Below, one piece after another: positions 18,162 through 23,993 of a stretch of DNA of 64,000 nt. The translations under genes and the position numbers were made by a program. This DNA is from an uncultured Desulfosarcina sp. (GTDB lineage Bacteria > Desulfobacterota > Desulfobacteria > Desulfobacterales > Desulfosarcinaceae). Every line of letters begins with the position of its first letter. Positions within the stretch are counted from its first letter, which is position 1. The notes below the pieces were generated by a model. That model searched no databases, was not told the origin of the DNA, and saw only the letters and a list, made by a program, of their open reading frames with translations. Where the stretch lies: contig CAXXWQ010000002.1 in the NCBI GenBank assembly GCA_963674945.2, positions 320,001-384,000 on the forward strand, written 5' to 3'.

Positions 18162-18560
18162 ATGAACAACATCATCCCCCTCGATAAAAAGCGCAAGCTA
18201 TCCCGGGATAAACAGGATGCCATCGAACGAAAGCGAAAGCTTTTGGCCGTCAGACAGGTTTTCCGATGTACGCACTGTGTTTCCAAGTGTGAAAAATGCG
18301 GTATCCATATCGATTCTGCCAACAGGCCGGACGAAACGAAATGGCGGGTTCCCTATCATTTCTGCGACAACTGTTCGGAAGAGTACATCGATTACATTAA
18401 GGTCCTCCAAGGGAAAAAAAACGAGGCGCTTTACTGGCATAACGATAGTTGGATGAAGGTGTGGGCCACCTGGATCGAACATCAAGGTGCCATCGACAGT
18501 TACCTGAAATCCAAAGAGTTCGAGCGGTTGCTGGAAGAATTGAGATTTCATCCGAAATAA
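18162..18560 (+). CDS. Cys-rich hypothetical protein (putative metal binding)
   Basis: [11 protein letters not shown] and CDNC; coherent ORF. Confidence 0.65.
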
Positions 18561-18648: not shown

Positions 18649-18831
18649 ATGTTTGGAATAGGCATGCCTGAGTTGATTATCATATTGGTCATTATTCTCA
18701 TCATTTTCGGCGTGGGAAAGTTGCCGGAGATTGGTGGCGGCATGGGAAAGGCGATCCGAAATTTCAAAGACGCATCAAACAAAACCGAATCCGAAGAACC
18801 CGAAAAGCTGGAAGACAACAACAAAGCCTAA
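18649..18831 (+). CDS. tatA: Twin-arginine translocase subunit TatA/E
   Basis: [49 protein letters not shown]. Confidence 0.95.
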
Positions 18832-18866: not shown

Positions 18867-18906
18867 ACGGGCCGGCAGAACAGACATGAATCTGCCGGCC
18901 CGTTTT
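18867..18906 (+). terminator. Rho-independent terminator after tatA
   Basis: 13-bp stem acgggccggcaga/tctgccggcccgt followed by a short T run. Confidence 0.65.
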
Positions 18907-19130: not shown

Positions 19131-20639
19131 ATGACTGTCCAGCTGCAGATCGATCCCATCACCCGCATCGAAGGCCACATGGCCGTCAACATTACCGTCG
19201 ATTCTCATCGTGTCATCGAAGCGCATAGCAAAGGCGAAATGTTTCGCGGGTTTGAAGTCATTTTAAAGGGCCGCGATCCCATGGATGCCCAGCAGATCAC
19301 CCAGCGGATCTGCGGCGTCTGCCCGGTGTCCCACGGTACCGCCTCCATTTTGGCCCAGGATGCCGCTTACGGCGTATTGCCGACGGAAAACGGCCGACTG
19401 CTTCGAAATCTGATTCTCGGCGCCAATTACATTCAATCCCACATCATTCATTTTTATCAGCTCAGCGCGTTGGACTACATCGATATTACGGCCATCTGTC
19501 AATACACTGGACGTGATCCGCTCCTGCAGGATCTCAAATCCTGGGTCGAATCCGGGCAAAAGGCCAATGTGCTATACCCGGCGGCGCCCTTTTTACCGCG
19601 CTACGACGGCGATTACATCCCTGACACCGAACTGAATCTATCGGCCATCCATCATTACCTGAAATCCCTTGAGATGCGCGCTTTGGCGCACCAGATGGGA
19701 GCGCTCTTTTCCGGTAAATTGCCCCACGCGGCCAGCCTTGTGCCCGGCGGCGTCACCGAAGTCGTGACCGCCCATAAAATTGCGGCCTGCAAAAGCATGC
19801 TGACAAAACTGCGGCAATTCATCGATTCCACCTATTTGCCCGACGTCCTGGCGGTCGCTTCCGCCTATCCGGAATATTTTGAAATCGGAAAGGGGCCGAA
19901 AAATTTGCTTTCCTATGGTGTCTTTTCCGAAAAGGATGCCACAACCTTTGTCCCGGACGGGGTATGGATGGACGACCGGCTCCACGGATTTGATAGGGAA
20001 AAGATCACCGAAGACGCCTCCCATGCCTTTTACCGGGCCAACCAACCGTTCGCCCCGGACGCGGGAGAGACACAACCGGCTCCGGACAAAAAGGGCGCCT
20101 ACTCCTGGGTCAAGGCACCGCGTTACGATGGACATGTGTTCGAGGTGGGACCACTGGCGCGCATGTGGATCGCATATAAAAAGCAGCCAAGTTCCGATAT
20201 CGGCATATGGATGGGCCGTCTTTTGGATCGACTGGATCGTGATCCGGCGGATCTGTTTTCCACCATGGGGCGTCACGCCACTCGGGCGTTGGAGTGCAAA
20301 CTCGTGGCCCAGCGCTGCGAACAATGGCTGTCCCAACTCAAACCGGGGGAATCTGCATGCAATGATTTTCGCATTCCCGAAACGGGTGTCGGGATCGGTC
20401 TCACGGAGGCCCCGCGGGGGGCGTTGGGACACTGGTTGAAGATAAAGAACCATAAGATTCACCGCTATCAGTGTGTGGTCCCCACCACCTGGAATTGTTC
20501 TCCCAGGGATGGAAAGGGTCAGCCCGGTGCCGTGGAGCAGGCATTGGTCGATACCCCCATCGGCGATGAGAAAAATCCCATTGAAGCGGTCCGGGTCGTT
20601 CGTTCTTTTGATCCGTGCCTGGCATGTGCCGTTCATTAA
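19131..20639 (+). CDS. [NiFe] hydrogenase large subunit, NiFeSe/group-1a-like, Cys-only, with no C-terminal extension
   Basis: DPITRIEGH, L1 motif RGFE...QRICGVC, L2 motif SFDPCLACAVH followed directly by TAA. Confidence 0.95.
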   Translation: MTVQLQIDPITRIEGHMAVNITVDSHRVIEAHSKGEMFRGFEVILKGRDPMDAQQITQRICGVCPVSHGTASILAQDAAYGVLPTENGRLLRNLILGANYIQSHIIHFYQLSALDYIDITAICQYTGRDPLLQDLKSWVESGQKANVLYPAAPFLPRYDGDYIPDTELNLSAIHHYLKSLEMRALAHQMGALFSGKLPHAASLVPGGVTEVVTAHKIAACKSMLTKLRQFIDSTYLPDVLAVASAYPEYFEIGKGPKNLLSYGVFSEKDATTFVPDGVWMDDRLHGFDREKITEDASHAFYRANQPFAPDAGETQPAPDKKGAYSWVKAPRYDGHVFEVGPLARMWIAYKKQPSSDIGIWMGRLLDRLDRDPADLFSTMGRHATRALECKLVAQRCEQWLSQLKPGESACNDFRIPETGVGIGLTEAPRGALGHWLKIKNHKIHRYQCVVPTTWNCSPRDGKGQPGAVEQALVDTPIGDEKNPIEAVRVVRSFDPCLACAVH

Positions 20640-20714
20640 GTAAATCTTTGTCCAGGGGTCTGGCTTTGGACTCCTCCTGAAAGGGTAGATGCACTGCGAA
20701 CACGGTAAACGTCA

Positions 20715-20901
20715 CAGGGGTCAGAAGCCAGTATTCAGGAGACAGAATGAATCTGAGTCGCTTCGCTCCGTCGATTGGATAATACGGTTCGAGCCGACCG
20801 AAGGCGAATACCTTATTCTCGTATCTGACTTCATTTTCCCGAAGTCAGGTTTTAGTTCAAACCGGTTGAAAGCCGGCGGCAGCGCTGAATTCTGACTCCA
20901 G
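20715..20901 (+). repeat. Dispersed hairpin element, family B, copy 1 (with internal insert)
   Basis: caggggtcagaa...ttctgactccag termini; matches the reverse complement of 23687-23811. Confidence 0.75.
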
Positions 20902-20989
20902 GATTCTTGTAAAAATCATACGGCAGAGCCAATGAAATTTGACTTGGTCCAGAGGGCCAGGTTTTCTACAACTCAATAAAAGGATTTCT

Positions 20990-21910
20990 ATGTCACCCAT
21001 TTCCCGAAGAGAATTTCTTTCCATCGGTGCAAAATTGGCCGCGATGATGAGCCTCTCACCGGTAGTCGTTGCCGATATCGCGGACGCATTGGAAAAATTG
21101 ACCACAGGTACGGTGCCGGTGGTATGGCTCCAGGGACAAAGCTGTTCGGGTTGCTCCGTCTCTTTGCTCAACGCGGACCATCCGGATCCGGCCGAGCTGT
21201 TGACCGGGTATATTTCCCTGATGTTTCACAGTACGCTCTCGGCGGCGACCGGCCATCGCGCCATGGACGTCGTCGACGACACCATCGCCGCCGGCGAGTT
21301 TCTCCTCGTCGTAGAGGGAAGCGTGCCGAGGAAAATGCCCAGTGCATGTGTAATGGGGGAAAAGTCCATCGCGGAGATGATTTTGCAGGCTGCCCGTCGG
21401 GCCAAGGCCGTCGTTGCCGCAGGGACCTGTGCGGCCCATGGCGGGATTCCCGCTGCCGAAAACAATCCCACCGGTGCCGTCGGGGTTCCCCAATTCCTTG
21501 CGGAAAGCGGCGTGAATCGCCCGGTCATTGCCATTCCCGGGTGCCCGATGCATCCCGACTGGCTGGTGGGCACCTTGGTTCACGTGATTCAATTCGGTAT
21601 TCCCGCACTGGACGCCATGGGGCGGCCGAAGGTGTTTTTCGACACCCTTGTTCATGATCAATGTCCCCGGTTTGCCGACTACGAGCGGGAGAAGTTCGCC
21701 AAGGCCTTTGGTGAACCGGGATGCCTTTTCAAGCTGGGATGCGTCGGTCCCAATACCCATGCGGACTGTTCTACGCGAATGTGGAACGCCGGCACCAATT
21801 TTTGTATCAAATCAGGCGCTCCCTGCATCGGATGTACCGAGGAAACCTTTGCCCGGCACGTCAACTTTCCCTTTTACCGAAAAAACGAAGATCTGACTTC
21901 TCAGGGATGA
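20990..21910 (+). CDS. [NiFe] hydrogenase small subunit with Tat signal and no C-terminal membrane anchor
   Basis: SRREFL twin-arginine motif; [46 protein letters not shown]. Confidence 0.95.
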
Positions 21911-21914
21911 ATCG

Positions 21915-23603
21915 ATGAAACTTCACACCAAACTCACTGTTTCCCTGGTCGTGGTGCTGATGGCCGTCATGGGTGGCGCCCTTGCATTTCAATATGGCGC
22001 CATGGACCGGCTTATCGCCGAATTTGCCAGTTCCAACGTTCAGCTGCTGAAAGAAAGGGAAGAGAGGGCCGCAGAAAATATCTTCTCATCCATCGAACGG
22101 GCCGTGGCAGGTTCCCTGGAACGTGGAGAGATGGAAAAGTTCAGCCGAATCCTGCAGCAACAGCGAAATGTCCGTGGTTTGATGGAATTCTCTCTCCATG
22201 ACCGGCAAGGTGTGGTCACCCATTCATCCAATGATCAATTCCTGAAAAAAACCTTGCCAAAACACATCCAGGATCGTTTGGGTCGCCAGACGGACATGGA
22301 ACTGACATGGACCGATGACGCCGTATCCATATTCAAACCGCTGTTGGTCAACAATGATTGCGTTCGCTGTCATGTGGGGTGGCAACCCGGTGAGATCGGC
22401 GGCGTCCTTCATTTCCGTTTTTCCAAGCAGACGTTGGCGCGGGCCGAAGCGCAGGCCGCGGATATCGTTTCCACCATTCACGCCTTCATGATGAAATACG
22501 TCGTGGCGACGTTGTCGGTCGTCGTGCTGGTCCTGGTCATCGGGATTCACCTTCTGGTTACCCGGTACGTGTCCAAACCCCTTACGCGGATCAACGTGCG
22601 GCTCCACGATATCGCCGAAGGCGGTGGTGATCTGACGGCACGCATCGATGTCACGGGTCGTGACGAAATCGGCAGATTGGCCATCTCGTTCAACACCTTC
22701 ATCGAAAAACTGCAGGAGATGATTGGTCGAATTGGAAAAAATGCGGTGGTGCTGCACGACTCCTCCAGCCGGCTTTTCGAACTGTCGGACCAGATTTCCC
22801 GGGAGGCCAACCAAATGTCGTCGCGATCCCGAAGCGCTGCCGCGGAGATTTCCCGCATGAACGACGGCATGACTTCGGCCGCCTCCATCATGGCGCGTTC
22901 ATCATCCAATGTCGGCGACATGTCCAGTTCAACGGAACAGATGAACAGCCATATCGATGCCATCGTTCAGAGTACGGAAAACGCCCATCGGGTCAGCGAA
23001 GAAGCCGTGGAAAAGACCAAAAATGCCACGATCATGATGGAAGAGCTGGACACGGCGGCAAAGGACATCGTCTCGGTCACCCAGACCATCACCGACATCT
23101 CTGAACAGACCAACCTGCTGGCCTTGAATGCCACAATCGAGGCTGCGCGTGCCGGCGAGGCGGGAAAAGGGTTTGCCGTCGTGGCCAATGAGATCAAGGA
23201 GCTGGCCAAACAAACCGCCGAATCGACAAGATCGATACACGATAAGAACCTGAGAATCCAACAGTCGTCCAATCGAACGATGCAGGAGATCGAGGCGGTC
23301 AGTCAGACCATTGCCAATGTCAACGAGATCGTCTCTTCCATCGCATCGTCCATCCAGGAGCAGTCTCTGTTGACCCAGCAGATCGCCAATAACATTTCCC
23401 AGGCAACCGAAGGGATTCTGGACGCCACGACCAATGTCACGGAGAGCGCCCAGGAGAATGAAAAAATCGTCGAAAAAATTTCATCGGTCAATGTGGCGGC
23501 AGAGCAGGTGGCCAAGAACAACCAGAGTATCAACCAAAACGCCGATGAGATGGTATCTTTGGCCAAGCAGCTCAAGGATATGGTGGGGAGATTTACAGTG
23601 TAG
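21915..23603 (+). CDS. Methyl-accepting chemotaxis protein with periplasmic c-type heme motif
   Basis: TM1, periplasmic domain with CVRCH (22359-22373), TM2, HAMP (DEIGRLA), MA hairpin [31 protein letters not shown]. Confidence 0.95.
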
Positions 23604-23686
23604 AATTTTTTTAGGTGAAGAAAAACTATGTCCTCTGAGACTAGGTCATCGTTCATTGGCTTTGCCGAACGATTGTTAGAAAAATC

Positions 23687-23811
23687 CAGGAGTCAGAATT
23701 CAGAATCCAGAATAATGTATTCGCCTTCGGCTCGATCTATCTTATTCAATCGATTAAGCGAAGCGACATCAAATTTCATTCTGGCTCCTAAATACTGTCT
23801 TCTGACTCCTG
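23687..23811 (-). repeat. Dispersed hairpin element, family B, copy 2
   Basis: Perfect 12-bp terminal inverted repeat caggagtcagaa/ttctgactcctg; inverted relative to the 20715 copy. Confidence 0.8.
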
Positions 23812-23993
23812 CAGCTCCCCCGCGACCGTAGCGCATCACACTTTCCAAGGGGCGCCTAAAGCCTGACCAACTGGCTCCCGTTTTTACTTTCCTTTTCCCA
23901 CCGGACTTGAAAAAATTCAACTTTGTTTGGTATTACCAGAGGCGATTTCATCCCTGCCGGATCTGTTTCGGCAATCGTCGTGTGGAAAAGACT

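Follow-up and report, generated by a model that had tools for sequence, protein, structure and literature searches.

A tail-less [NiFe] hydrogenase linked to a heme-c-motif chemoreceptor: a conserved module and candidate periplasmic hydrogen sensor

Why would a [NiFe] hydrogenase bearing an export signal be encoded four base pairs ahead of a chemoreceptor? The question is raised by a 64,000-nucleotide stretch of an uncultured Desulfosarcina sp. genome (GenBank assembly GCA_963674945.2, contig CAXXWQ010000002.1, positions 320,001 to 384,000; hereafter the window). Three plus-strand genes follow one another there: a [NiFe] hydrogenase large subunit (19131..20639; 502 aa, PF00374), a small subunit (20990..21910; 306 aa) with a twin-arginine (Tat) signal and no membrane anchor, and, after a 4-bp gap, a methyl-accepting chemotaxis protein (MCP) receptor (21915..23603; 562 aa) whose sensor domain carries a CVRCH heme-c attachment motif. 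An initial annotation of the window had described this arrangement and had stated that no cytochrome or protease gene adjoins the cluster; both descriptions hold. The reading preferred here, at a probability of roughly 0.6 and on sequence evidence, is that the tail-less Tat hydrogenase and the receptor act as a periplasmic H2 sensor, in which H2 would reduce the receptor heme through the iron-sulfur (FeS) wire of the enzyme and thereby switch heme ligation.

Conservation of the three-gene module

Analysis of other genomes and metagenomes reveals that the three genes form one conserved, co-inherited module. In a search by large subunit, a receptor lies within 3.5 kb at 20 of 29 genome loci, and the remaining nine comprise three loci cut by contig ends, one tailed relative, one split module and four loci without a receptor. 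The split locus (L017) is rejected as an exception, as its small subunit and receptor are found on another contig. The search by receptor N-terminus places a hydrogenase gene of the clade beside 70 of 78 metagenome loci (one assembly prefix is common to 17 of these 78). Sensor-profile matches occur in 32 of 401 genomes drawn evenly as a phylum sample; among the 30 loci fetched from 39 places, the small subunit stands directly upstream of the sensor in the best 20 of 20, own genome included, versus 1 of the 10 next weaker. With L, S and R denoting large subunit, small subunit and receptor, the gene orders found are L-S-R, S-R-L, R-L-S, R-S-R-L and convergent L / S-R. The small-subunit and receptor genes overlap by 4 bp at 38 of 93 junctions, leaving no room for a promoter belonging to the receptor. 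The initial annotation had staked its proposal on adjacency in other genomes and on the lack of a separate receptor promoter; the former is found in both search directions, across phyla and despite changes of gene order. Together, these two properties give good support to a dedicated hydrogenase-receptor signalling module.

Thermodesulfobacteriota, Myxococcota, Planctomycetota and Pseudomonadota are among the hosts, and the distribution is patchy, the large-subunit type being present in 3 of 60 close relatives and in 1 of 30 genomes within the genus. In that sole same-genus carrier (G016), the receptor is spread over three frames (L060:4934-6614), reflecting a frameshift or an assembly error. 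A further copy of the module, with a large subunit about 62% identical to that of the window, sits on a contig of 3.4 kb that was assigned to an archaeal bin (L012) and is likely mis-binned.

A point absent from the initial annotation is the distance of 350 bp between the large and small subunit genes (20640..20989); in relatives this gap is mostly 5–60 bp. The spacer is strain-specific, lies outside the conserved module and is filled with genome-dispersed repeats (about 50 copies) that hold a terminator-like hairpin on the plus strand (20823..20850), so that co-transcription of the large subunit with the other two genes is uncertain in this strain. Such dispersed intergenic repeats, with about 50–75 genome copies, flank the module both here and at 23604-23906.

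A tail-less group-1 hydrogenase

The large subunit stops at the last His of the DPCxxCxxH motif (DPCLACAVH) with no extension, and the absence of a maturation protease is explained by the absence of a tail to cleave. The motif contains Cys and not selenocysteine (Sec), and there is no in-frame TGA. The closest solved structures are [NiFeSe] hydrogenases (PDB 1cc1 and 4kl8, E 6e-133); the sequence passes NF033181 and misses the HysA model cut-off (545 versus 780), and its gas-channel residues are the standard Val63/Leu111. In the small subunit, the Tat signal reads SRREFL and a C-terminal hydrophobic segment is lacking. Across the clade, the RR motif is present in 89 of 89 small subunits and a membrane anchor is absent from 91 of 91; export of the enzyme is predicted. 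Specifically, the cluster ligands are C52/C55/C147/C185, C260/C272/C279/C282 and H222/C225/C245/C251, all of them invariant among 89 clade small subunits, including the medial-cluster Cys, which we take as a sign of three [4Fe-4S] clusters. In trees, the window enzyme belongs to group 1, is separated from HoxC and does not join the main tailed branch, and the group 2 rows form a separate branch with a Shimodaira-Hasegawa-like approximate likelihood-ratio (SH-aLRT) value of 100; in a tree without the second group-2 lineage, HoxC attaches weakly (56/92) among the tail-less rows. The tail-less rows reach SH-aLRT 98 for 43 rows in one quick tree, and a clade is not resolved in two others. Judged by sequence, the enzyme is Cys-type and group-1a/[NiFeSe]-like, not group 2b.

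Loss of the tail coincides with the receptor. The tail is absent in 90 of 90 scorable clade large subunits, eight further rows being incomplete or unscorable. Across 152 large subunits, which are not independent rows, 86 are tail-less with a receptor, 57 are tailed without one, nine are tail-less without one (two HoxC-type references included) and none is tailed with one; L227 counts as receptor-less by threshold, yet bears a weak sensor with two hemes, in fusion with Hpt and HATPase domains. Receptor-less relatives have tails of 12–19 aa, several of them adjoining cytochrome b or HycI, and the nearest tailed relatives are of two kinds, cytoplasmic enzymes encoded next to MetF/MvhD genes and enzymes accompanied by cytochrome b and a protease. 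The naturally tail-less hydrogenases set out in PMC7294309 belong to groups 2b, 2d, 4c, 4e and 4g, with none in group 1, and the known H2-sensing hydrogenases treated there are also without a tail. Moreover, in 55 complete triples the sensor distances track those for the large subunit and for the small one (rho 0.77 and 0.80), whereas signalling-domain distances do not (rho 0.25 and 0.29), although the distance pairs are not independent and co-inheritance alone accounts for part of the correlation. As a separate observation, most of the close tailed relatives L201-L218 are Tat-less, group-1a-like and encoded between MvhD/FolD-type genes and MetV/MetF, a layout that suggests a cytoplasmic hydrogenase tied to methylene-tetrahydrofolate reduction.

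The module fits no described hydrogenase class cleanly. As in group 2b (HoxBC-HoxJ, HupUV-HupT), the hydrogenase gene adjoins a signal transducer and the large subunit is without a C-terminal extension. Unlike group 2b, the enzyme groups with group 1 in trees, its large subunit is 33% identical to HoxC, its small subunit has the Tat signal that HoxB lacks, and its partner is a transmembrane heme-c receptor, mostly with MCP output, rather than a cytoplasmic histidine kinase. Bulky Ile/Phe gas-channel residues are a group 2b trait; HoxC has CGIC and HFYLFF (Ile/Phe), whereas the window has CGVC and HFYQL (Val/Leu). Closest in sequence are the group 1a/[NiFeSe] enzymes (1cc1, 4kl8, HysAB), with a Tat signal and three predicted [4Fe-4S] clusters in common. 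The module enzyme nevertheless has Cys where HysAB has Sec, and its locus, unlike those of the uptake enzymes of this group, has no tail, protease or cytochrome, places the large subunit before the small one and includes a fixed receptor partner. For [FeFe] group C2, entered as 'chemotactic (putative)', HydDB proposes H2 sensing via MCPs and lists the function as undetermined (PMC5037454); the module enzyme, in contrast, is a PF00374 [NiFe] hydrogenase, and the HydDB article's account of C2 describes no heme-c sensor (PMC5037454). Most likely, the module works as a regulatory hydrogenase would if it were relocated to the periplasm and connected through a heme.

The heme-c sensor domain

The receptor comprises two transmembrane (TM) helices, TM1 (aa 7-25) and TM2 (aa 196-214), followed by HAMP and MCPsignal regions, and the sensor (21993..22484, plus strand) lies between the helices. 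Its AlphaFold model (pLDDT 92.5) shows one Cache/PAS-like domain. Searches of the PDB with the sensor sequence give no significant match; a Foldseek search with the model returns WalK first, with GSU0935 and GSU0582 at E 2.7e-4 and 1.3e-3 (E 2.7e-4 to 3b42). The window sensor scores 13.9 and 13.1 bits against PF11845 and PF21563, below the curated cut-offs; at E <= 0.05 these families match 24 of 87 and 19 of 87 members, the best E values being 4e-4 and 9e-5, and Atlas neighbours of the sensor carry both. The domain is thus a distant relative of GSU0582/GSU0935 and Tll0287 (sCache_heme). Like GSU0582/GSU0935, DcrA and sCache_heme (DUF3365/Tll0287), it places a periplasmic Cache-type fold between two TM helices and combines CxxCH with an upstream Met, the Met-to-CxxCH spacing being 76 versus 80 in GSU0935; unlike the sCache_heme families, it falls below the Pfam thresholds and is tied to a hydrogenase. 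The word 'hydrogenase' occurs zero times in the main text of the sCache_heme preprint (bioRxiv 10.64898/2026.02.01.703092). At E <= 0.001 the sensor profile recovers 587 representatives, of which 227 also reach E <= 1e-30, and on this basis the sensor is a conserved subfamily of its own, comprising the latter 227 and tied to a hydrogenase.

Two elements of the domain are lost or kept together: the CVRCH motif (aa 149-153; 22359..22373, plus strand) and Met73 (22131..22133, plus strand), the predicted switchable distal heme ligand. Among the matches in 150 representatives, 143 have both, four have neither, one is mixed and four are gapped, a covariation such as would be expected of a His/Met heme whose covalent attachment is predicted from the motif. 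Receptors at the planctomycete loci L018, L019, L022, L023, L024 and L027 are without CxxCH and Met73 and may represent a heme-independent variant. The family has other variants as well: two-heme versions of the sensor (L029:10483-12609 and L227:2468-4816), the latter fused to Hpt and HATPase domains as a second module in G313, and additional tandem sensor paralogs (L123:8456-10534 and L140), one with a C-terminal hemerythrin domain.

Proposed mechanism, alternatives and meaning

In the proposed mechanism, the hydrogenase would dock onto the receptor, electrons from H2 oxidised at the NiFe site would fill the FeS wire, and the receptor heme would be reduced by the distal cluster. On reduction, Met73 would bind the heme, by analogy with Met60 of GSU0935, a protein that passes from His/water to His/Met ligation on reduction with a midpoint potential of -251 mV (PMC8396549), and TM2 and HAMP would relay the ligation change to CheA, resulting in taxis. 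Because the module contains no electron sink, the heme may equilibrate with H2/H+ and report log[H2]. A one-electron heme at the GSU0935 value of -251 mV is calculated to be half-reduced at about 2.4 nM H2 at pH 7, its 10–90% range spanning 6561-fold in H2; at -156 mV it would be saturated. A wider proposal, offered tentatively and with the odds somewhat against it, is that an undescribed, widespread group-1 subgroup serves as a periplasmic 'hydrogen electrode' cut off from respiration, reading log[H2] over several thousand-fold around nanomolar, with the sensor-hydrogenase unit re-fused to MCP or kinase outputs. Complex prediction of the small subunit and sensor with FeS clusters and heme scores 0.05 against a mark of 0.32, which speaks neither for nor against the arrangement.

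The host genome contains three CheA-type genes, flagellin, FliG, three cytochrome-c assembly genes and HypD. It carries one copy of the module sensor, and of its 23 open reading frames (ORFs) with an MCP core, CxxCH is present in the module receptor only. FliG is found in 21 of 21 sampled carriers versus 224 of 379 other genomes (59%; Fisher p 3e-5), a p value that is overstated because the 21 carriers fall in 11 families. Another group-1 large-subunit match is present in 20 of 24 carrier genomes, one of these matches being partial.

Could the hydrogenase merely keep the heme reduced, the signal being an oxidant or gas (O2, NO, CO or ambient redox) and the response aero- or redox-taxis? Redox or O2 elicits a response from DcrA and GSU0582/GSU0935, which also bind NO/CO (PMC8396549), one signalling sCache_heme protein acts as a sensor of NO (bioRxiv 10.64898/2026.02.01.703092), and weaker family members (L166, L168, L169) adjoin multiheme cytochromes instead, which suggests that the sensor domain reads whichever electron donor adjoins it. 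For that role, however, a general reductant such as periplasmic cytochromes would suffice, and at least three heme motifs occur in each of 18 ORFs of the genome; H2 as input accounts better for a tail-less hydrogenase that is dedicated and co-inherited, and the oxidant signal is considered unlikely. Contact signalling, in which the receptor binds and anchors the hydrogenase and senses its conformation, which is linked to redox state, in the way suggested for HoxBC-HoxJ, with heme as an accessory, would agree with the anchorless small subunits throughout the clade. It would also agree with the heme-less planctomycete receptors, in which the linkage persists along with the LxRGE portion of the motif, and with planctomycete small subunits that differ at residues 224-233 by the distal cluster, these forming one lineage. 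Retention of CxxCH together with Met73 in 143 of 148 scorable matches, in contrast, points to most members having a functional, redox-switching heme and renders signalling by contact quite improbable.

Finally, the enzyme could be a soluble periplasmic uptake hydrogenase of the ordinary kind, with free cytochromes as its electron acceptors and co-transcription with a non-interacting redox- or energy-taxis receptor. Intact catalytic motifs and standard channel residues are what such an enzyme would have, and receptor-less members are found beside hyp genes (L013). This explanation is nonetheless very unlikely given the near-exclusive two-way linkage despite gene-order shuffles, the coincidence of tail loss with the receptor, the co-divergence of the sensor, though not of the signalling domain, with the enzyme, and the presence of another uptake enzyme in most carriers.

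Several observations weigh against H2 sensing by the module and are taken together here. The catalytic and gas-channel residues match those of ordinary uptake enzymes, and in 4 of 24 carriers the module enzyme is the only group-1 type found, a point also in favour of the uptake function, which makes a metabolic role possible. Linkage is not universal: G459-G461 have a tail-less enzyme and no sensor match (metagenome-assembled genomes with completeness unstated), G317 (99% complete) has a close, intact sensor and no group-1 hydrogenase match, and no hydrogenase is present at four receptor loci with at least 1.9 kb upstream (L069, L116, L117, L121). Kin and repeated samples inflate the counts, and for as many as 26 of the 57 tailed loci the flanking sequence extended only 1.5 kb. 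Five of 87 non-redundant receptors, all from planctomycetes, are without CxxCH and Met73 and still follow the small subunit, so that heme is unnecessary for linkage in that group. Some homologous sensors head histidine kinases (L116, L117, L132 and, weakly, L227) and drive these rather than chemotaxis, and the sCache_heme protein characterised as an NO sensor counts here as well.

Two further hydrogenases of the host lie outside the module. A separate tailed uptake hydrogenase stands beside hyp genes. In its gene (G000:C4:3305905-3307554; L063:7906-9555) an in-frame TGA occupies the position of the second Cys in the N-terminal CxxC; the C-terminal motif is normal, hairpins lie downstream, and one TGA occurs in many relatives. 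The codon is possibly Sec, at a position unusual for [NiFe] hydrogenases. A Tat-less, group-2-like hydrogenase pair followed by a probable histidine kinase (G000:C4:399662-403558) is likely a cytoplasmic H2 sensor.

Upstream of the cluster, the initial annotation had placed tatA and a weak sigma28-like box. The position of tatA is correct (18649..18831, plus strand), but its link to the module is not upheld: a strong hairpin of its own with a T-run (about 18867-18903; -28.5 kcal/mol) lies downstream of the gene, and no tatA homolog was found at the other fetched loci, including 92 tail-less hydrogenase loci, 81 of them with at least 1 kb upstream. It is therefore rejected as a module member, its adjacency being incidental. 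The box upstream of the large subunit scores 9/12 and is attributed to chance, since 82 of 300 shuffles score as high or higher; the exact sigma28 consensus pattern has no match in the whole window. A 10/12 box before the small subunit (10 of 300 shuffles reach its score) was not used, given its 14-bp spacing and location inside a dispersed repeat. Farther upstream of tatA, a 132-aa ORF with CxxC motifs (18162-18560) has no Pfam or NCBIfam match.

Full-text literature searches turned up no paper on this hydrogenase-receptor module, although supplements (HydDB tables, sCache_heme preprint datasets) could include these proteins. The HydDB article lists a sensory role for no group-1 enzyme (PMC5037454), and taxis toward H2 has been shown in a methanogen, the report giving no identified receptor (PMC3817446). 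If the hydrogen-electrode proposal is true, this would be the first defined receptor for hydrogenotaxis. The module points to a concrete receptor and its input enzyme, with residues that lend themselves to testing, in motile reducers of sulfate and metals, in magnetotactic bacteria and in planctomycetes. A protease-independent, tail-less exported hydrogenase would be of interest for maturation studies and H2 biosensors, and among the enzymes that genome surveys tally as respiratory group-1a uptake hydrogenases, some may be sensors.

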